From Silvanigrellaceae bacterium (lineage in GTDB: Bacteria > Bdellovibrionota_B > Oligoflexia > Silvanigrellales > CANGWC01): a DNA stretch of 64,000 nucleotides. Under the pieces are notes generated by a model that saw only the letters and a program-made list of their open reading frames with translations, did not search any database and had not been told where the DNA came from. The DNA lies in NCBI GenBank assembly GCA_947457515.1, contig CANGWC010000001.1:34153-98152 (forward strand), read 5' to 3'. The position numbers and the translations under genes were made by a program. Of this stretch, positions 4,002-54,146 are shown piece by piece. Each line of letters begins with the position of its first letter. Positions within the stretch are counted from its first letter, which is position 1.

Positions 4002-6322
4002 AGTTTAAGTAACTTTTCTTTATTTTTGGCGGTATATTCTAAAATAGAATCTCTTAAGAATTTTTCTTTTCTTTTTCGATCTCTATGTAACCAAAGTAAT
4101 ATCCCCGGACCTAATATCAGAATTAAAGTCGGGATCACCCAAAAGAATATTCCCACAGGACTACTAAAACTGGGCTTACGTAAGATCCATTCTCCGTAAC
4201 GATTTAAGAAATATTGAATCACTTCTTCTTTATTCTTACCTTTGGCTACCTGCTCTTCTACCTCATGACGCATCGCTATACTTTGTGGTGTTTCACTTTC
4301 TAAGATACTGACCCCTTGGCAGGTAGGACATCGTAACTCTTTGCCTATGTTTTGAATCAGATCTTGGCTATGTCCGGGAAAAGTTGTGATACTTAAAACA
4401 AGAACGAGTAACCATTTTAAGTTATGAGTGAAACAAATCAATCCCCCTAATAACATCAAAAATAAACTCACCCATACAAATTTTACCAATGGATTAATAT
4501 GTATTTTAAGAAACACTTCTTCGGTTTTAAGATCAAACGATCCTAAAACTCCATAGATATCATGCCAAAAAGTTGAGTAAACTCCTGCTTCATGGAACCA
4601 TTCCTCTCGGTTTGTGTATTTAGCTCGGTAAGGTTCCACAAGAAACTCTCCAGAATCATTTTTCCCTTTGATCTTAGCTCCGACCATTTTCACATTAGAT
4701 CCTTCTTGATATTGAAGGCCTTCATAGGTGAAGTGGTGACCAAAAAATTCAAATGTCTCTTGAGGGAGAAGCTTAAACTCTTGATCTATTCCTCCATAAT
4801 TACCTAAAAATCCCCATACAGCACAGAGAAAACCCATATGTATGAAAAAACTTCCAATATACCGACGATTATGTTTGAAATAATTTCTCCAAAGTTTCAT
4901 TTTATTGATAAAATCTATGGTTAAAAGAGATCCACTTAACAAAATACCTTCAAATCCTACCCACTGCATAAATGTTGCTTTCTTAAAATAGGTTACGAGA
5001 AGAGAAAGAATGAGGGAAACGATTAAAGCTATGGAGATATCTTTTTTAAAGTGCGGAGGGGATCCCATCCAGGGAAGAAGGCTTCCTAAACCCATTAAGA
5101 TAATTAAACTCACTCCAATCCAAGGCATAAATGCATTAAAAAATGGTTGTTGGATAGATATTTTCACTCCTCTAATAGCTTCAACAATTAAAGGGAGAAG
5201 AGTTCCAATGAAAACTAATCCTAAAAGGAATAATAAGAAGAATTGAGTCAATAATAAAACCATTTCCCGAGAAAGAAGTTTCATTGGTGCTGTGATAGGA
5301 AATTGAAATCGAGGAGTTCTGATGGCCAGTGTGATTAAAGAGACACTGAAAAGAAACAAGACATAGGTGAGATAAATAGGACCTATAGAACTTTCAGCGA
5401 AGGAATGCACACTGCTAATAATATTCGATCGAGTGATAAATGTTCCTAGGAAAGTGAGACTAAATGGCATCATTAAAAGGAAGAAAGTCAGACGAGGCAG
5501 TCGACCCATGCGATCAAGCACTTGAAGTGAATGAAGACTACAAGTCAAAGCTAACCAAGGCATAAAAGAACTGTTCTCTACAGGATCCCATGCCCAATAA
5601 CCAGCCCAACCTAATTCAACATAGGCCCACTTTCCTCCTAAGAAAATACCTACAGTCAGTAATGACCAAGCCACAAGAGCCCATCTTCTGACAACTTGAA
5701 TCCAAGATTCTGTCCACTTTCCATAAAGAAGTAACGAGAGAGTATATGCAAAAGGAACCACTAAACTGCAATACCCGGAAAATAACATCGGAGGATGAAT
5801 AGCCATGTAAGGATTTTGGAGAAGAGGATTCATCCCCTGTCCCTGTCGACCTGGAGGGAAGAGTCTATCAAAAGGAGCAGATGCCCATACACAAAGTAAC
5901 GTCATAAAGATCATTGTCCCTGCTAAAATAGTCACGAGTCCCGGAATCAAAGGTTCATTATCTTTATTCACCGTCATGAGGCAAAGACTTGCCATAATAG
6001 AAAGTAACGCTGTCCATAAAAGATGACTTCCCTCTAGTGAACTCCAAAAAGAAGTTAAGAGGTAAAGTTTAGGCATATCTAAAGAAGAATTTCTAAAGAT
6101 ATAAGTTACACTAAAATCATGTGTCAGAAGTCCATTCCATAGAATAATGGAAGCTAATCCAATAAAAAAAGAAACAAGATAAAGAGAACGTTTACCACTT
6201 GTTTGGTGAGAGACTCGACTCAATGACTGCAAAGGAGCAAAGCTTGCTAATAAACCTTGAACAAACGAATACACTGAGAAGATAAGTGCAAGTGATATAA
6301 ATCCAAAGCCAAACTCAGCCAT
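3998..6322 (-). CDS. ccmF: Cytochrome c-type biogenesis protein CcmF fused to a CcmH-like C-terminal domain
   Basis: CcmF motifs FSVTYIFRNSS...FWSSLEGSHLLW and the WWD-type GYWAWDPVENSSFMPWL are present. The C-terminus carries LRCPTCQGVSILESETP...RYGEWILRKP plus a TM, which is the CcmH CXXC module. The likely start is MAEFGF at 6322, 2 nt after the hemF stop. Confidence 0.85.
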   Translation of the reverse strand: MAEFGFGFISLALIFSVYSFVQGLLASFAPLQSLSRVSHQTSGKRSLYLVSFFIGLASIILWNGLLTHDFSVTYIFRNSSLDMPKLYLLTSFWSSLEGSHLLWTALLSIMASLCLMTVNKDNEPLIPGLVTILAGTMIFMTLLCVWASAPFDRLFPPGRQGQGMNPLLQNPYMAIHPPMLFSGYCSLVVPFAYTLSLLLYGKWTESWIQVVRRWALVAWSLLTVGIFLGGKWAYVELGWAGYWAWDPVENSSFMPWLALTCSLHSLQVLDRMGRLPRLTFFLLMMPFSLTFLGTFITRSNIISSVHSFAESSIGPIYLTYVLFLFSVSLITLAIRTPRFQFPITAPMKLLSREMVLLLTQFFLLFLLGLVFIGTLLPLIVEAIRGVKISIQQPFFNAFMPWIGVSLIILMGLGSLLPWMGSPPHFKKDISIALIVSLILSLLVTYFKKATFMQWVGFEGILLSGSLLTIDFINKMKLWRNYFKHNRRYIGSFFIHMGFLCAVWGFLGNYGGIDQEFKLLPQETFEFFGHHFTYEGLQYQEGSNVKMVGAKIKGKNDSGEFLVEPYRAKYTNREEWFHEAGVYSTFWHDIYGVLGSFDLKTEEVFLKIHINPLVKFVWVSLFLMLLGGLICFTHNLKWLLVLVLSITTFPGHSQDLIQNIGKELRCPTCQGVSILESETPQSIAMRHEVEEQVAKGKNKEEVIQYFLNRYGEWILRKPSFSSPVGIFFWVIPTLILILGPGILLWLHRDRKRKEKFLRDSILEYTAKNKEKLLKL

Positions 6323-16317: not shown

Positions 16318-16432
16318 AATTTCTCCTAAGACTGATTTTTAAGGGTTTTTTGAGAGTCTCAACCTTTTTTTAAGGGAGACTGATGGCTTTACACTAGATC
16401 ACATTAAAGTTTTATGCTAATTAAAAATTCGT

Positions 16433-16582
16433 ATGAAAAGAACCTACCAACCAAGCAATAGGGTTAGAAAAAGAAAATTTGGTTTTCGAGCCCGAATGGC
16501 AACAGTCGGCGGAAAAGAAGTTATTCGTCGTAGACGAAGCAAAGGTCGTCAGCGTCTAGCTGCTACGATCTATGAAAAATAG
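16433..16582 (+). CDS. rpmH: 50S ribosomal protein L34
   Basis: My own translation is [49 protein letters not shown] (49 aa). It is missing from the ORF track because of its size. Confidence 0.9.
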
Positions 16583-46613: not shown

Positions 46614-48126
46614 TGATTGCTTGCCGTGTTGCTATGATAAGGATGAATAAAGAAAATGTACCCATGACTAAGAAATCCCATCCAAATGGAATCAGCTGAA
46701 TGCCTCCTTGGAATTCCCCAAGATAAGTGATGACTCCTAAACCTATAAGATAAGGAAAAATCCATGCAGCATTCATGAAATCCATGGATGTTTTTTTGTT
46801 TTTGCCTAGGAAAAATAATAGGACTCCTAATAATACAAAAACTATAATACAACAAACAGAATAAAACCCAGTCCATAAAATAAGCATATTACAAATATAG
46901 AAACCTAGGTAGGCTATGAGTCCTACAAAAGGCACTCGAAATGGCCTTTTCATATCTGGCTGTAACTTTCTGAGAACCAGTAAAGAAATAGGCCCAGCTA
47001 TATAAGTTAAAACGAGAACTGTACTGAGAACAGATATCATGGACTGTAAATTATTAAATAAAAGAATAAATATCATCCCTACAAAGAAATTCAGCCACAC
47101 TGCTAACGAAGGTACGCCTCCTTTATTGAGGACAGAAAATCGAGCTGGAAGTAATCCACCTATAGCCATTGTGTAGAGATTTCTTGCAGCCGAACCACTT
47201 TGCACAAGAGCTGCACCTAAAGGAGAAACAACAGCATCAAGATAGAGGATATGAACGAGCCATCCTAATCCTATTAATGCGGCTAAACCTGCCAGTGGAC
47301 CTGCATCTCCTGGGAAAGAAAGTTTAGCCCACGAAGATGTTAAAAATTCTGGAAGAAGTGCAACAACAAATGAGACTTGCAGTAAACAATATAGGAAAAT
47401 ACAAATAACAATTGAACCTATAGCGGCAATAGGGATGCTTTTGCTTGGATTACGCACTTCCCCTGCATACATAAGCCCATATTGAAATCCATTAAATGCA
47501 TAAATAACGCCACCTGTGGCAATGGCTGTTAGAATCCCTTTAATGCCTTGTGGGGCAAAAGCAGGATGAGTCATGTTTTCCCAATATGGGTTAGAAAACA
47601 AAAACATAAACGCTACAAATGCAGGAATTAATAGTTTCCACCACGTAATATACTTATTAGTATCTGAAGTGGCTTTACCGCTTAAATTATTTACAAGAGA
47701 AATTCCCAGCATCATGATTCCAGCAACAATAATGCCAAAGATACTTAAAGGCTTAGATTCAATAGGTTGAATGAGCCAAGGGAAATAGTTACTCCCATAT
47801 TGTATAGTAGCTAAGACTTCTGCTGATATTTGAAAAAGAAGTCCTGCCCACAAAACCCAACCCATGATAAAACCTAAAAGATTCCCATGCGTAAAAAAAG
47901 CATACGCTGTAGCTCCACCTGAGATGGGAATGGCTACTGTTAATTCAGCAAAGGCTAAGCTGAGAATCATCATAAGTCCTCCGCCTATCACCCAAGAAAT
48001 CACAGAACTGGGGCCTGAAATTTGAGCAGCAAATAAAGGGCCAAAAAGCCAACCTGAGCCTACCATGGCACTTATGGAAGCAAATAATACTCCCAATGTT
48101 TCGATTCGTCTTTTTGGTTTATTCAT
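46564..48126 (-). CDS. APC-superfamily amino acid permease
   Basis: 520 aa with about 12-13 TMs and the N-terminal GVLFASISAMVGSGWLFGP motif. Confidence 0.8.
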   Translation of the reverse strand: MNKPKRRIETLGVLFASISAMVGSGWLFGPLFAAQISGPSSVISWVIGGGLMMILSLAFAELTVAIPISGGATAYAFFTHGNLLGFIMGWVLWAGLLFQISAEVLATIQYGSNYFPWLIQPIESKPLSIFGIIVAGIMMLGISLVNNLSGKATSDTNKYITWWKLLIPAFVAFMFLFSNPYWENMTHPAFAPQGIKGILTAIATGGVIYAFNGFQYGLMYAGEVRNPSKSIPIAAIGSIVICIFLYCLLQVSFVVALLPEFLTSSWAKLSFPGDAGPLAGLAALIGLGWLVHILYLDAVVSPLGAALVQSGSAARNLYTMAIGGLLPARFSVLNKGGVPSLAVWLNFFVGMIFILLFNNLQSMISVLSTVLVLTYIAGPISLLVLRKLQPDMKRPFRVPFVGLIAYLGFYICNMLILWTGFYSVCCIIVFVLLGVLLFFLGKNKKTSMDFMNAAWIFPYLIGLGVITYLGEFQGGIQLIPFGWDFLVMGTFSLFILIIATRQAISVEKFKNYFEFFNKQQ

Positions 48127-48853: not shown

Positions 48854-50016
48854 TGAAAAAATACCTTATTAGTCTTATTTTTATATCTTCATATGCTCAA
48901 AGCATATGTCATTTAGCGTCAACTGGGACTTATGGTGATTTATCTAGTGATTTAATAGGTATTTCTGAAAACTCCTCTCATTTCTCTTTTTGTGGATATG
49001 CTGCTTTAAGTCCAAAAAACACACATCTGACTCTCCCCACAAAAAGCCACACTCTTGCTTGTTATAAAGAAAAATCTCAATCAGAAAGTATTCAATATTT
49101 TCCTATTTCTGGAGCACTCAGCGCTGCTCCCATTATCACTTCTGACTTTATTTTAGTTGCTACAGAAAATGGTTTTTTGGAAAAAGTTTTTCCTAACAAG
49201 AGAAACTTATCTTTATGGTCTGGACTCAGCCGTCAACATCAGCCTCCCAATCGAATTAAGATATCTTCTCCCTTTGTGAGTCATCCCATTATTCATAAAG
49301 AAATCTTTTATGGAGTCACTCTTAATCAAAATCTGTACGCTATTGATAGTAAAAGTTTAGAAATCTTATGGTCTTGCTCTTTACCTAAGGACCCTTGGGG
49401 GCAGCCTTCTCCTTTTATTGCTGCTTCTCAATTCAACTCCACCCAAGATCAAGAAGATGTGATCTTACTTGGCACCTCTACAGGAGATCTCTTAGCCTTC
49501 AAAAGTGACTCCGGAAAAATCATATGGTCTCAAAAGACTCCTTTTAAAACATTAGAACAATCTAGAATTATTTCTATTTCATCAGACTCTAAAAAAGTTT
49601 ATGTCACTTACCCTCAAGGGTTGTTAGCATTATCCATATCTCAAGGAAAAATTCGTTGGGCCACTCCTACTCAGACTTCCTTATCGAGTTACTTGTCTTC
49701 TGACTCCCTTTGGACTCAGAATCATAAAAATCAAATCATTCAAATATCCAAAGAGTCTGGTAGGATTCTCAACTCTCTTGATTACCCCTATCCCATTCAA
49801 GAAATTTTTGAGAACCATTCCATGATATTAGGTTCTACTCCCCATGGAGTAAGTATTTTAAATTCTTCTCATTCCTTACCTTTGTTAGGATCTCGATATC
49901 TTTCCTCTGAAAATTTTGATAAGTCTTTACAATTTAACTCTAAAGATTTAGGGACATGTTTAATGAGTTCTGGCCAATTAAATTGTTTTCAAATTTATTG
50001 TGGGTCATCTCTTTAA
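48853..50016 (+). CDS. BamB-like PQQ-repeat beta-propeller protein
   Basis: Repeated motifs LYAIDSKSLEILWS, GDLLAFKSDSGKIIWSQ and GLLALSISQGKIRWA. A signal peptide is present. The junction with the upstream gene is TAATG. Confidence 0.6.
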   Translation: MKKYLISLIFISSYAQSICHLASTGTYGDLSSDLIGISENSSHFSFCGYAALSPKNTHLTLPTKSHTLACYKEKSQSESIQYFPISGALSAAPIITSDFILVATENGFLEKVFPNKRNLSLWSGLSRQHQPPNRIKISSPFVSHPIIHKEIFYGVTLNQNLYAIDSKSLEILWSCSLPKDPWGQPSPFIAASQFNSTQDQEDVILLGTSTGDLLAFKSDSGKIIWSQKTPFKTLEQSRIISISSDSKKVYVTYPQGLLALSISQGKIRWATPTQTSLSSYLSSDSLWTQNHKNQIIQISKESGRILNSLDYPYPIQEIFENHSMILGSTPHGVSILNSSHSLPLLGSRYLSSENFDKSLQFNSKDLGTCLMSSGQLNCFQIYCGSSL

Positions 50017-50026
50017 ATTACAGTTT

Positions 50027-50566
50027 ATGATATTTGATTTTACACAGAAAAAAATGGATCTTATTAAGTATAATAAGGATAGCTGGTTAACATCCCCTCA
50101 TTTCTCAATTACGTTAAAGAAAAATATTCTCAAAAAAAGAATGAAGCTTGTGGAATCTTGGATACATGGTCAAGAAATGTGTGGTGTATCATTTTGTGAT
50201 TTTTTTGTCATGAAGGATATATGTCAAAAATTTTTTCCTGAAAAAATCATTACAGATGTTTTAAGTTTTAATTCATCTCCTACTTTTACAGATAATTCAA
50301 TAGAAACTGACAGAGATCATAAGTACTTAGGAGATATTATTATTTGTCTTCCTTACTGTTTATGGTTTCTACGTAACAAAAAAACCTCTTTATCATCACA
50401 TCTCGAAAGACTGATTATTCATGGTATGATTCATCTTAAGGGTTTTGATCATGAAAGAAGCTCTTCTGCTTACAAAATCATGCATCATTTAGAAACTCAG
50501 ATATTTAAGGAATTAAATCATATTTATGGCGAAGAAAATTGGATAACTTGCAAAACCCACTCTTAG
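50027..50566 (+). CDS. ybeY: Endoribonuclease YbeY
   Basis: The zinc motif HGMIHLKGFDHE is present. The start is assumed at MIFDF (50027). Confidence 0.8.
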   Translation: MIFDFTQKKMDLIKYNKDSWLTSPHFSITLKKNILKKRMKLVESWIHGQEMCGVSFCDFFVMKDICQKFFPEKIITDVLSFNSSPTFTDNSIETDRDHKYLGDIIICLPYCLWFLRNKKTSLSSHLERLIIHGMIHLKGFDHERSSSAYKIMHHLETQIFKELNHIYGEENWITCKTHS

Positions 50567-51885
50567 TAGGGGCTATTGTCCTTATCATCTGTCTTATTTT
50601 AAGCTCATTCTTCTCAGCAATGGAAACAGTGCTTACAAGCTTGTCTTCTATTAAGACCAAACATCTTAAAGATACTTCTCCACGATCCCAAGTTTTAGAT
50701 CTTTGGTTGAAGTACCCCCATAGAATTCTTGCTACGACTCTATTAGGCGCCAATATAGCTAATATTTTTATGGCTCTTTACGCTGACCAGCTTGTTCAAG
50801 AAAATTTAGGTCCTACATCCTTAGAACTCGTTACAACAGTGGTTGCTTTAGTCATCGTCATCGTGACAGAAATCTTCCCTAAAACTCTTGCCAAGCAATT
50901 TGCTCCTTCTTTAGCCATACCCATGCTGCAAGTGTTTCAGTTTTTTTATTATATTTTCTTACCATTTAGTGCACTGATCTCATTTATGACTAATCTTCTC
51001 AGTCATAAATTACAATCTAGTCCTCTGCCTCAAATTACCGAAGAAGAATTAGAATATCTCATTGATGTAGGTGAAGAGCAGGGAGTCTTAGAAGATCAAA
51101 AACATGAAATGCTCAGTGGTATTTTTGATTTAGAAGACACTCTTGTCAGAGAAATTATGGTTCATAGAACCGATATGGTTGTGCTCTCACAACACACTCT
51201 TATTTTTGATGCTATTAAGGTTTTTAAGAAAACAGGTGTCTCTAGAATTCCTATATACGAAGAAAAAATAGATAATATTACCGGATTTATACACTGCAAA
51301 GATGCGTTATTTTTCCTGGCTAATCATCCAGAAGGAACACCTCATAGTGTCATTGTAAGTGAAATTAAAAGAGATCCTTTTTTCGTTCCTGAAAGCAAAC
51401 GTATTCATCAGCTCTTTCAAGATATGCGAAGGCAAAGACAGTGGTTAGCTATCGTATTAGACGAATATGGTGGCACCAGTGGCATGATCACAATGGAAGA
51501 TATGCTTGAAGAAATTATGGGTGAATTAAGAGATGAATTTGACATCGAAGATGATGCTATCCGTCAACTAGAAGATGGTTATCTTGTGGAAGGGAAAGTT
51601 CATATAGATGACTTTTCACAATACTTTAAACTACCCTCTCAAGCTTTATCTGCAGAAGGATTTGATACCATAGGTGGTATTGTTCTTTCTCACTTTGGAG
51701 CAATCCCTAAAGTCGGAGATTTCTTTGAACTTGCAGGTATTAAAGGCGAGGTTATAGAAGTGAGCAAACGTCGGATCCGAAGAATTTTTATAACTGTTAT
51801 GGACCCTAACTTTAGAGCTCCTCAGTCTTCGTCCTCTTCATCAAATTCATCATCTTCGTCGTCGTCATCATCTTCGTCGTCATAA
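50539..51885 (+). CDS. CorC/TlyC-family protein (DUF21, CBS pair, CorC_HlyC) with a poly-Ser tail
   Basis: Four N-terminal TMs, a CBS pair ([11 protein letters not shown]...SRIPIY), and the transporter-associated domain (EGKVHIDDF...GGIVL). The ybeY-corC synteny is typical. TTG start. The last 20 or so codons are Ser-rich. Confidence 0.8.
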
Positions 51886-52061
51886 TCTTCATCGTCTTCA
51901 TCGTCTTCATCGTCTTCATCATCGAAGTCTTCGTCATCAAACTCTTCAAAGTCTTCATCTAATTCATCATCAGAATCTTCGTCGTCGTCTAATTCATCGA
52001 ATTCTTCATCTTCATCGATGTCTTCGATATCTTCATCTTTATCCATAAACCAAAGAGTCAT
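51822..52061 (-). CDS. Hyper-acidic 79-aa protein (61 Asp/Glu residues)
   Basis: The ATG at 52061 is preceded by AAGGGGGA, with 7 nt between the G-run and the ATG. A TTGACA lies at 52115..52110. The frame stays open through a GAx-rich repeat. Confidence 0.6.
   Translation of the reverse strand: MTLWFMDKDEDIEDIDEDEEFDELDDDEDSDDELDEDFEEFDDEDFDDEDDEDDEDDEDYDDEDDDDDEDDEFDEEDED
51886..51921. repeat. 9-nt tandem repeat tcttcatcg, three perfect copies plus one near copy
   Basis: Read directly from the sequence. It is in frame within the acidic ORF, lying just 3' of the corC stop (TAA at 51883..51885). Confidence 0.8.
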
Positions 52062-52231
52062 GAGTTTTCCCCCTTAAGAATTATGAATAGTGCTTATGGG
52101 TTATGTTTTTGTCAAGATGTAGTATGAAAATTCCCCACATTTAGACTCAATTTTTTTCATTAACTGACTGTCTCTTATTATTTTTAGCTTTTCAGACCAT
52201 TGGTATTGGCTATCATCAATCTCTTTTTCCT

Positions 52232-53650
52232 TCAGAGATTGATGGAAGACTTTTTTTTTAAGCCGTGCACCTCAAAAGATTCTGAAAAATCTTTTTTTAA
52301 CCTCATCATGAGGATTTCCCATTCCTGTGTACTGAGATCATGATAAAGAGATCCTTCCCCTTGGAAGGTGATCCCCTGAGTATTTAATGAAATAATAGGA
52401 ATATTTTTAAGTTTAGTCCCCAAAATAGGATGATTTTTTTGGAGAGTTTGAATGGTTTGACTAAATTTTTTATGAATATCTTCAGGTTGCTGTACCAAAG
52501 GGGTGACTTTTTGTGGCATGTCCTTTGGATTTTGAGATGACTTTTTGAGAAGACTGAGCACCTCTCCGGATGATAGCCAGTCTCTTCGATGAATAATGTC
52601 TAAAATCCCTAATTGACACCAAGGGAGTGGATCCTGAGACTGCTGAATGTCTTCTAATATTTGTAGAAGTCTTTGAACGACTGCAGATAATACTGGGATA
52701 TTCAAATGATTTTTAATATAGATTAGAACTTCCTTATCTAAGTGAGAATAATAGTCTATAGAAATCATAATTTGCTGAAAATACTCAAACACACTCTTAA
52801 AAAACTCATGTAAGTTTTCGTGATTTTCATGAAGCTGAAGAAGAAGAGATTGGCTTTTTTGAATATCTCCATTCACTAGAGATAAAACCATCTCTTTAAC
52901 ATTCTGAGGGTCACTTAATCTTAATCCCTGAGTGACAGCTTTTCTGTCCATACAATCAGTTTGGATGAAAGGAATCACCTGTTCTAGTAAGCTGAGAGCA
53001 TCTCGAGCACTGCCTAAGGCTTTATGAACCAGTAAAGCTAAGGCTTCTTCTTCCCAATTCAGATTCTTAGTTCTTAAAGCATCTTTAACGAGTCCCATCA
53101 GATCTTCATGGGCTAAAGAACCAAATGAAAACATTAAACATCGAGATCTGATTGTGGCAGGTATTTTATGAACTTCCGTTGTTGCTAAAATAAAGACTGT
53201 AAAAGGAGGAGGCTCTTCTATGGTTTTAAGAAGTGCATTAAATGCTGAAATACTCAACATATGAACTTCATCTATAATAAAAATTCTGTATCTTGCAGAT
53301 TGAGGATACAGCTGGATTTGTTCCTTTAAAGAACGGATTGCATCAACTCCAGTGGCTGTGGCTCCATCCATCTCAACAACATCTTCATGACTAAATGTTT
53401 TGATTTTTTCGCAGTGCTGACATTTTTGGCATGGTTCTTCAACAATGCCTTCAGTGCAACAAAGGCATTTTGCAATAATTCGAGCTGTGGATGTTTTCCC
53501 AGTGCCTCTTGCCCCTGTAAAAATAAGCGCAGGATGAATTCTTTGAGTTTGAATCATAAACCTCAAAGCTTCTATGGTGGTTTTCTGGCCCACCATATCT
53601 GAGAAAGATTGAGGTCTGAGAGATCGAGCTAAAGGGACGTAGTATTCCAC
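52232..53650 (-). CDS. dnaX: DNA polymerase III subunit gamma/tau (short form)
   Basis: FSDMVGQ, FTGARGTGKTSTARI, the Zn module CQKCQHC, IFIIDEVHMLS and SRC. GTG start. Confidence 0.9.
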   Translation of the reverse strand: MEYYVPLARSLRPQSFSDMVGQKTTIEALRFMIQTQRIHPALIFTGARGTGKTSTARIIAKCLCCTEGIVEEPCQKCQHCEKIKTFSHEDVVEMDGATATGVDAIRSLKEQIQLYPQSARYRIFIIDEVHMLSISAFNALLKTIEEPPPFTVFILATTEVHKIPATIRSRCLMFSFGSLAHEDLMGLVKDALRTKNLNWEEEALALLVHKALGSARDALSLLEQVIPFIQTDCMDRKAVTQGLRLSDPQNVKEMVLSLVNGDIQKSQSLLLQLHENHENLHEFFKSVFEYFQQIMISIDYYSHLDKEVLIYIKNHLNIPVLSAVVQRLLQILEDIQQSQDPLPWCQLGILDIIHRRDWLSSGEVLSLLKKSSQNPKDMPQKVTPLVQQPEDIHKKFSQTIQTLQKNHPILGTKLKNIPIISLNTQGITFQGEGSLYHDLSTQEWEILMMRLKKDFSESFEVHGLKKKSSINL

Positions 53651-53689: not shown

Positions 53690-53790
53690 GGTGATAGGAA
53701 CACAGATCACCTATCTCAGGCCTGCACCGTTGCTCCCTTTCGGTTCTGGCGGAATTTACAGTCTGAGACACCAACCCGGAAACTACCACC
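53690..53790 (-). ncRNA. ffs: Signal recognition particle RNA (4.5S-type)
   Basis: The minus-strand RNA GGUGGUAG...CCGCCAGAACCGAAAGGGAGCAACGGUGCAGG...CUAUCACC folds into one long hairpin. The apex has a GAAA tetraloop and a GGGAGCA/CCAGAA symmetric-loop region resembling SRP domain IV. ffs-dnaX synteny is known in other bacteria. Confidence 0.75.
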
Positions 53791-53987: not shown

Positions 53988-54146
53988 CTATTTTTGCTTT
54001 TTAGGTTCTTCTTTTTGTAGCCATTTATTCATAACAACACGAACTTTTTCTCTGAGAACAGGGTTTTGATCGATAATTGATTTGAGAAGAGCAAGATCTT
54101 CATCATTTTCAAATGTGGAAGTTGGTTTAGGATTATCAGTTGTCAT
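53988..54146 (-). CDS. Small hypothetical protein (52 aa) downstream of the M23 peptidase gene
   Basis: My own translation is MTTDNPKPTSTFENDEDLALLKSIIDQNPVLREKVRVVMNKWLQKEEPKKQK. The ORF is the only evidence and the SD is weak. Confidence 0.25.
   Translation of the reverse strand: MTTDNPKPTSTFENDEDLALLKSIIDQNPVLREKVRVVMNKWLQKEEPKKQK

Follow-up and report, generated by a model that had tools for sequence, protein, structure and literature searches.

A hyper-acidic, predicted disordered small protein encoded between dnaX and corC in Silvanigrellales-type bacteria

The acidic gene and its orthologous loci

The window analysed here, a 64-kb stretch of contig CANGWC010000001.1 from a Silvanigrellaceae bacterium whose plus strand is the forward strand, carries on its minus strand a small open reading frame (ORF) that lies between dnaX and corC and consists for the most part of codons for aspartate and glutamate (D/E) (Table 1). 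The initial annotation of this DNA had counted 61 acidic residues and one basic residue among the 79 amino acids (aa) of the ORF (52061..51822), and a recount gives the same figures, with 39 D, 22 E, one K, no R, and no H, along with 15 hydrophobic or aromatic residues (F6, L3, M2, I2, W1, and Y1). Such acidity is far above chance: the long ORFs of the window contain 10.8% D/E on average, and among all the frames of the 64 kb, a 40-aa stretch with at least 45% D/E is found in the frame of the acidic ORF alone. The in-frame tandem repeat of 9 nucleotides (nt) that had been noticed within the gene was recovered as well, as a period-9 array of 11 copies with a 73% match (51825..51920, Tandem Repeats Finder), to which the arrays with periods of 15, 18, and 27 are related.

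Table 1. Features around the acidic gene, in window coordinates unless a locus is named, and acidic ORFs at the orthologous loci.
Feature	Positions	Strand	Remarks
Hyper-acidic small protein, coding sequence	51822..52061	-	79 aa plus stop; 77% D/E; net charge about -60
Imperfect in-frame tandem repeats inside the acidic tract	51825..51923		Periods 9, 15, 18, 27; Tandem Repeats Finder
Shine-Dalgarno-like AAGGGGGA	52068..52075	-	6 nt ahead of the acidic-gene ATG
TTGACA, perfect -35-like hexamer	52110..52115	-	Candidate -10 CACTAT after a 17-nt spacer, weak
Spacer from dnaX stop to acidic-gene ATG	52062..52231	-	170 nt
corC/CNNM-family gene	50539..51885	+	Pfam: CNNM transmembrane domain, CBS pair, CorC_HlyC; probably accidental poly-Ser tail
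Convergent overlap of the acidic-gene and corC 3' ends	51822..51885		64 nt
dnaX (clamp-loader gamma/tau)	52232..53650	-	Pfam; upstream neighbour of the acidic gene, same strand
Probable signal recognition particle (SRP) RNA (ffs)	53696..53782	-	RF00169 Bacteria_small_SRP; 32.2 bits vs gathering 40; E = 3e-4
Bidirectional intrinsic terminator in the acidic gene/corC gap	L004 5400..5432	-	AAAAAACUGUAGC-UGAAC-GCUACAGUUUUUUUU; A6-hairpin-U8
Acidic ORF, L002 (near-identical strain, 96% DNA identity)			Annotated as a 74-aa gene
Acidic ORF, L004			113 aa
Acidic ORF, L006			About 111 aa
Acidic ORF, L086			124 aa
Acidic ORF, L087 (cultured Fluviispira sanaruensis, AP019368.1, at about 447,936-448,277, minus relative to corC)			113 aa
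Acidic ORF, L089			95 aa
Acidic ORF, L005			Partial, contig-end fragment
Gene call in the acidic-gene slot, P0043 (seventh locus, without DNA)			123 aa

Orthologous loci were located through the neighbouring genes. The CorC homologues of Silvanigrella and Fluviispira are 50-53% identical to the window protein and those of uncultured relatives up to 55%, and by these homologues the window belongs among the Silvanigrellales-type Bdellovibrionota. In six sequenced lineages of these bacteria, we found the order dnaX > acidic gene < corC, with an acidic ORF of 74-124 aa, and gene callers had annotated the acidic gene at every locus. At all recovered loci, dnaX lies upstream of the acidic gene and on the same strand, and corC is convergent; this synteny, which the initial annotation had marked for comparison among relatives, is kept in the gene calls of P0043 as well as in the six sequenced lineages, even though the CorC proteins of the lineages with the acidic gene are only 49-54% identical to that of the window. 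It had also been remarked that the gene occupies the position after dnaX where ybaB and recR are usual. In fact, the outgroup locus L090, a metagenome-assembled genome labelled Bdellovibrio, has the canonical dnaX-ybaB-recR arrangement there. The acidic gene follows dnaX, but no recR follows it, and the window and the orthologous loci yielded neither of the two usual genes, ybaB and recR.

When metagenomes were scanned with a CorC alignment, L006 was the one true relative to emerge, next to 79 distant corC loci that served as a negative control, and no such acidic ORF was present in approximately 480 kb around 80 distant corC genes. A contig scan with DnaX as the lone query returned only an unrelated Burkholderiales locus, and the window DnaX matched no contig by exact look-up. 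The acidic family is so far confined to Silvanigrellales-type bacteria (Bdellovibrionota), in which it lies directly downstream of dnaX. As a separate observation, dnaX is not adjacent to corC in Silvanigrella aquatica (L003, CP017834), and a 334-nt run of N just downstream of corC (5555..5888), in a genome labelled complete, is followed by an IS3-type transposase pair. The readable flanks of this run are not acidic and are unlike the acidic gene, though the N run hides part of the locus. The two genes also lie apart in the metagenome-assembled genome JAWVHD01.

We found no homologue of the window protein in a search of a protein collection, nor any with phmmer against 1.84 billion representatives. 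Profile searches, a kind of check that had been suggested for it, gave nothing either: no Pfam family matched the window protein at E <= 0.01 or four of its relatives at E <= 1, no NCBIfam family matched, neither library showed an EF-hand or other ordered metal site, and comparison with the PDB sequences gave no relative. The window protein and four orthologues are themselves absent from the protein collection by exact look-up, so these negatives say little on the distribution of the family and owe as much to gaps in the databases as to rarity. Literature searches on Silvanigrellales returned no mention of the acidic protein, and the C/D-box small nucleolar RNA matches obtained there by Rfam search, at E 0.13-0.97 over the repeat and well short of the gathering score, reflect noise from composition.

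The members of the family share an architecture in which a short, non-acidic, and non-conserved leader, starting M-[VLT]-[FLV], precedes a tract of 70-90 residues with 75-87% D/E. Within the tract, hydrophobic residues come mostly every 3-8 positions (gaps of 1-14), without periodicity, an F, Y, or L recurs every 3-10 residues, and there are essentially no basic residues. The overall D/E content is 59-77%, the net charge is about -55 to -80, and the C-terminal residue is D or E in all members. AlphaFold2, run on the single sequence, gave a mean predicted local distance difference test score (pLDDT) of 57, a predicted template modelling score (pTM) of 0.13, and no secondary structure. The acidic protein is thus very probably a disordered polyanion, as modelled here, and the family would be a lineage-restricted bacterial group of hyper-acidic, predicted disordered proteins with no match in the libraries searched.

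Coding potential and selection on the acidic protein

The D/E frame contains no stops at any of the seven full-length loci, and each other frame of the six has stops somewhere. The ATG and an upstream GGAGG, whose counterpart in the window is AAGGGGGA, are conserved across the loci; between close pairs, every indel has a length divisible by three, and most substitutions either are synonymous or exchange D and E. The repeat length, which had been expected to vary between strains, does so in the close relative L002, where an in-frame 15-nt deletion relative to the window falls within the repeat region. Given that the ORF, its start codon, and its Shine-Dalgarno sequence are conserved across deep relatives, the acidic ORF is almost certainly a real, translated gene, as the initial annotation had proposed. 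That annotation had also named a finding that would have spoken against a gene, namely orthologues with a broken minus-strand frame that keep the poly-Ser tail of CorC; what we observed was an open frame at all seven loci and CorC tails that are not conserved.

Codon usage points in a similar direction. GAC makes up 44% of the Asp codons of the window gene and 13% of those in the window's 43 long ORFs (p = 8e-6). Compared with the flanking genes, L004 is shifted towards GAC (p = 2e-6) and GAA (p = 0.009), L086 towards GAC (p = 0.005), and L089 towards GAA (p = 0.012). Bacterial genes with efficient translation usually favour GAC and GAA, and the shift therefore fits translational selection.

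The residues that interrupt the acidic tracts carry further information. Across the tracts of six independent lineages, 64 of the 77 non-D/E residues are F, Y, W, L, I, V, or M (Y21, F19, and L16 being the main ones), 7 are K, H, A, or G, and none is N or Q. The codons that can be reached from GAN in a single step include those for N, H, G, A, K, and Q, and F and L are two changes away. Against a one-step neutral expectation of 1/3, the hydrophobic punctuation has a binomial p of 3e-19, and judged from these sequences it is under selection, so that a functional protein is favoured over a trinucleotide repeat that merely drifts. The encoded polyanion is under selection for its acidity as well.

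Upstream signals, overlap with corC, and translation of the tract

The Shine-Dalgarno sequence had been placed 7 nt ahead of the ATG, which agrees with a spacing of 6 nt for AAGGGGGA, or 7 nt when measured from its G-run; in the relatives, GGAGG lies 5-6 nt ahead of the ATG. The TTGACA hexamer that had been noted at 52115..52110 is present, but it does not amount to a full promoter: a consensus promoter scan called no sigma-70 promoter at the acidic gene, and the candidate -10 agrees with TATAAT at only 3 of 6 positions. Co-transcription with dnaX is possible. The spacer between the two genes is 160-201 nt in the relatives, similar to that of the window, and the window spacer has no Rfam match at E <= 1. 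We also observed a conserved intergenic motif, CTTGC(G/A)..N..T(T/G)TG(A/G)TTAC(C/A)T, which precedes the ATG of the acidic gene by approximately 85-120 nt in L004 (at about 5880-5912), L006, L086, and L087, with equivalent positions in L086 and L087. Its geometry resembles that of a promoter with a TTGC-type -35 and an extended TG, and it is missing from the window lineage, which has TTGACA instead.

At the other end of the gene, corC ends at 51885, and the last 64 nt of the acidic gene are antisense to its 3' end, as had been described. The tail of CorC had been explained as the opposite-strand reading of GAN codons, and this holds: the plus frame of the overlap reads a poly-Ser tail, the overlap spans only CorC residues 428-448, and the CorC_HlyC domain ends at residue 420 (Pfam). 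The antisense of GAN is TCN (Ser) and almost never a stop, so that a corC gene lacking an earlier stop continues into the acidic gene; the TAA that ends corC in the window is the antisense of the single Tyr codon of the acidic gene. The D/E frame and the antisense Ser frame share their third codon positions, so that a wobble change alters neither protein. Of the possible kinds of antisense overlap, this one is under the least constraint, and strand-specific dN/dS is uninformative within the D/E part.

Across 120 CorC homologues, the tails are not conserved, and poly-Ser occurs sporadically (P0060, P0068, and P0018); in both of the cases examined at the DNA level, P0068 and P0018, corC overruns the acidic gene. 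In L004, L086, and L087, the two genes do not overlap and are separated by gaps of 27-85 nt. A 103-nt segment of L004 that contains a perfect bidirectional terminator folds at -26.5 kcal/mol (z = -4.9), and no stable structure of this kind was found after the acidic-gene stop in the window (z about 0), nor was one found in L089. An antisense regulatory pair formed by overlapping 3' ends, which the initial annotation had offered as one hypothesis, does not stand as a general property of the family, given three orthologous loci without overlap and one of them with a bidirectional terminator. Since three relatives lack the overlap, the CorC domain ends earlier, and the CorC tails are not conserved, both the overlap and the poly-Ser tail are likely incidental, a by-product of read-on and not a conserved regulatory design. 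The free poly-Ser extension that an antisense GAN tract gives to a neighbouring gene calls for caution in annotation.

The translation of such a tract is of interest in itself. Runs of D/E abort bacterial translation through intrinsic ribosome destabilisation (IRD), an effect that grows when Mg2+ is low or the run is close to the N-terminus and that is countered by bulky residues and by a nascent chain of approximately 30 aa ahead of the run (bioRxiv 10.1101/2021.02.02.429294), as well as by EttA/YbiT (PMC11162784). E. coli uses IRD in mgtL and apparently also in ybeX/corC (bioRxiv 10.1101/2021.02.02.429294), and poly-acidic tracts as long as those described here have been reported to be absent from its proteome (bioRxiv 10.1101/2021.02.02.429294; PMC11162784). 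The leaders of the relatives are 22-33 aa long, approximately the length of the ribosome exit tunnel, whereas that of the window protein consists of 6 aa (MTLWFM), and its D/E run starts at residue 7. The leader of the relatives could fill the exit tunnel, so that the D/E tract would be translated without IRD. The window lineage may have lost this leader and, with only 6 aa left, less efficient and Mg2+-sensitive synthesis would be expected, with a lower protein yield and more frequent abortion. A conserved bacterial gene with 59-77% D/E is thus a natural test case for the translation of poly-acidic tracts, for which leader length, codon choice, and ABCF factors are candidate adaptations, and the family offers a natural comparison of genes with and without a leader.

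Possible function, alternatives, and neighbouring genes

In its working, the acidic protein appears most like the disordered polyanions of eukaryotes, by analogy and not by descent, and it is a member of no known family. Prothymosin-alpha and the acidic regions of Npm2 and Nap1 are small or modular, fully disordered polyanions that reportedly bind highly basic nucleic-acid-binding proteins in a polyelectrolyte or DNA-mimic manner (PMC7661507, PMC10987829). With prothymosin-alpha and the acidic regions of histone chaperones, the family shares extreme negative charge and predicted disorder, as the 61 acidic residues and single K of the window protein illustrate, which would put it in the same functional class without implying homology. 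These proteins are eukaryotic and nuclear, however, while the acidic family is bacterial, has no sequence relationship to them, and is only presumed to bind comparable partners. Prothymosin-alpha has approximately 50% D/E and no aromatic residues, in contrast to the higher D/E content and the conserved F/Y/L punctuation of the acidic family. DSS1/Sem1, an acidic and disordered protein of approximately 70 aa with interspersed aromatics for which DNA mimicry towards RPA has been reported, is alike in size, charge, aromatic punctuation, and, given dnaX, a replication-gene neighbourhood; it is, however, much less acidic and eukaryotic or archaeal-like in distribution, and the acidic family has no Pfam match.

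YbaB, MgtL-type leaders, folded DNA mimics, and mimics of the SSB tail are not families to which the protein could belong, since each of these comparisons fails on at least one defining feature. YbaB/EbfC occupies the same slot and has a similar length (107 aa for the YbaB of outgroup L090, 95-124 aa for the acidic proteins of relatives), but it binds DNA, which a polyanion cannot do, and its composition is wholly different. A derived YbaB (PF02575) was rejected, as there was no Pfam match to YbaB_DNA_bd and a blastp comparison of the family with the outgroup YbaB returned no hit. The window protein resembles MgtL-type IRD leaders and ybeX/corC in its D/E-rich start and in having a corC homologue beside it, and this early run is found in the window protein and not in the relatives, with their longer leaders. 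MgtL is, however, a 17-aa leader upstream of the gene that it controls, whereas the acidic ORF is 79-124 aa long, convergent with corC, and upstream of nothing: the next ORF of at least 150 aa on the same strand ends at 48126, 3.7 kb away.

Ocr, ArdA, Ugi, DMP19, and similar proteins of bacteria and phages are acidic DNA mimics that compete with DNA for DNA-binding proteins. These mimics are folded and present their carboxylates on a rigid scaffold, while the acidic protein is predicted to be disordered and matches no PDB sequence; the low pLDDT and pTM, the lack of secondary structure, and the lack of a PDB relative led us to reject a folded mimic of this type. The C-terminal tip of SSB has the consensus DDDIPF-COOH, and a mimic of it was rejected as well, because all family members end in D or E and none in a hydrophobic residue. 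The E. coli proteins MsyB and RraB (YjgD) are small, cytoplasmic, and folded, with only approximately 30% acidic residues; the acidic family shares their small size and acidity, and no homology was detected with Pfam or NCBIfam. The term "hyperacidic" has reportedly been used in one study for fusion partners (PMC11594932).

The explanation that we consider best as a whole, and put forward tentatively, is that of a real polyanion gene whose product would bind its partners through charge and whose relatives carry a leader of tunnel length. As a soluble disordered polyanion, the protein would bind cationic partners, the likeliest being basic nucleic-acid-binding proteins of the nucleoid, the ribosome, or the replisome. 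This binding would be of the polyelectrolyte or nucleic-acid-mimic type, with the aromatic and aliphatic residues acting as anchor contacts, and if such anchors are selected, protein partners are favoured over simple ion storage. That the partners are basic proteins, an idea drawn by analogy with prothymosin-alpha and H1, the acidic regions of histone chaperones, and DSS1 and RPA, is a possibility that we regard as doubtful on its own. The position after dnaX, in the usual YbaB slot, is a suggestive hint of function only. Within the window, we found no lysine-rich or histone-like partner; only one ORF has a strongly basic stretch (53 aa, 16421..16579), and by its sequence as read it resembles ribosomal protein L34.

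Several points weigh against this explanation. The disorder call is weakened by its origin in a single-sequence AlphaFold run, although the composition makes order implausible, and no folded or motif-based interaction module is evident, nor can the N-terminal leaders be aligned between lineages. The large protein databases lack even the orthologues recovered here, and the distribution is known for the sampled loci only. The promoter of the window gene is a candidate (a perfect -35 with a weak -10), and the agreement of the leader with the tunnel in length is a correlation across five lineages. Composition by itself does not tell protein binding apart from the binding of metals or polyamines, and the expression of the gene and its putative partners are deduced from sequence.

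The last of these ambiguities leads to the alternative of a cation reservoir or buffer, in which the polyanion would retain Mg2+, Ca2+, K+, or polyamines as counter-ions, much as calsequestrin and polyphosphate do, perhaps together with CorC, the Mg/Co-associated transporter encoded beside it. The net charge of the family must be neutralised by cations in any case, corC adjoins the acidic gene in the six sequenced lineages, and the cultured members of the order come from freshwater (PMC7386786). The strongly selected F/Y/L punctuation is not needed for ion binding, however, and no EF-hand or other ordered metal site was matched. The functional tie to corC that the initial annotation had considered is not upheld either: in a relative in which corC lies away from dnaX, there is no acidic ORF beside that corC, and the link between the two genes may reflect shared gene-order ancestry. 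We therefore regard a cation buffer as unlikely.

A more elaborate version of the polyanion explanation strikes us as decidedly unlikely. It would make the protein a bacterial counterpart of prothymosin-alpha or DSS1 in the YbaB slot, which would mimic nucleic acid and so act on basic proteins of the nucleoid or replisome as a chaperone or competitor, with the tunnel-length leader and the GAC/GAA codons acting against IRD and with the loss of the leader in the window lineage leading to Mg2+-gated synthesis that is coupled in antisense to CorC.

Synthesis of this kind could also be the whole function of the window copy, which would then be a Mg2+ sensor of its lineage: translation would abort by IRD when Mg2+ is low and proceed to the end when it is high, and ribosome-coupled transcription into the corC 3' end would modulate corC by an antisense effect or by transcriptional interference. 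The known behaviour of IRD, stronger at low Mg2+ and near N-termini and exploited by mgtL and apparently by ybeX/corC, is compatible with such a sensor, as are the lack of a leader, the 64-nt overlap, and the lack of a stable terminator-like structure after the stop in the window. Yet a few D/E residues would suffice for it, with no need for a selected 73-residue tract that has conserved punctuation and optimised codons, and three fully sequenced relatives have the leader and no overlap. The logic would moreover be inverted, with high Mg2+ giving more antisense RNA against an exporter required under that very condition, and the acidic ORF is upstream of no gene. All this makes a sensor improbable.

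Another alternative is that the ORF encodes no functional protein and is a GAN-trinucleotide expansion that has stayed open by chance; its place downstream of dnaX would be tolerated, and there would be little or no expression. Low-complexity, repeat-rich, and length-polymorphic sequence with no database relatives or domains, leaders that do not align between lineages, and a composition that leaves the alternative frames nearly stop-free as well would all be natural for such an expansion. It would not explain why an ORF with a start and a Shine-Dalgarno sequence persists where CorC is only approximately 50% identical, why the non-acidic residues are so far from neutral (p = 3e-19), why the GAC bias (GAA in two lineages) differs from other genes at the locus, or why L004 has a dedicated bidirectional terminator, and we consider it highly improbable. 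Finally, selection for a plus-strand product, a functional Ser-rich C-terminal extension of CorC of which the minus ORF would be the shadow, is effectively refuted and was rejected: although a single stop leaves most of the plus frame open across the region and poly-Ser tails recur in three homologues, corC stops 27-85 nt short in three relatives in which the acidic gene persists, most CorC homologues have unrelated tails or none, and the plus frame past 51885 has neither start nor Shine-Dalgarno sequence, both of which are conserved on the minus strand.

Returning to the polyanion with charge-based partner binding, fully disordered polyanions that act through polyelectrolyte binding are well studied in eukaryotic nuclei and, to our knowledge, hardly known in bacteria. 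A cultured host, Fluviispira sanaruensis, makes the idea testable. It is also worth considering that the standard databases and profile tools are blind to the acidic family, and small proteins of extreme composition may be systematically missed.

Among the other neighbours, the window DnaX has 472 aa and no match to PF12169 (gamma/tau domain III), whereas the DnaX proteins of the orthologous loci have 624-668 aa and mostly do match it. The window DnaX is also very divergent, with its nearest non-self homologue 37-39% identical; the window lineage seems to be fast-evolving, and the C-terminal region of tau may have been lost or become unrecognisable. Directly upstream of dnaX, the SRP RNA gene that had been assumed there was recovered as a full-length match (model positions 1-97 of 97), but only below the gathering score, so that it is missed at the default threshold. 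Between ffs and an M23 peptidase gene lies a 52-aa ORF, MTTDNPKPTSTFENDEDLALLKSIIDQNPVLREKVRVVMNKWLQKEEPKKQK (53988..54146, minus strand), which has no Pfam match and also appears among the gene calls of two close relatives, with 52 or 54 aa.

On the other side, the ORFs of ybeY (50000..50566, plus strand) and corC overlap by 28 nt, the first possible start of corC being TTG; this start variant of CorC is not in the protein collection by exact look-up, and the true start may differ. Several of the loci also carry homologues of CsrA of 100-143 aa (L004 421..852, L088 851..1246, L087 522..833, and L003 491..793), in which a core of approximately 55 aa is followed by long, low-complexity, and poorly conserved C-terminal extensions.

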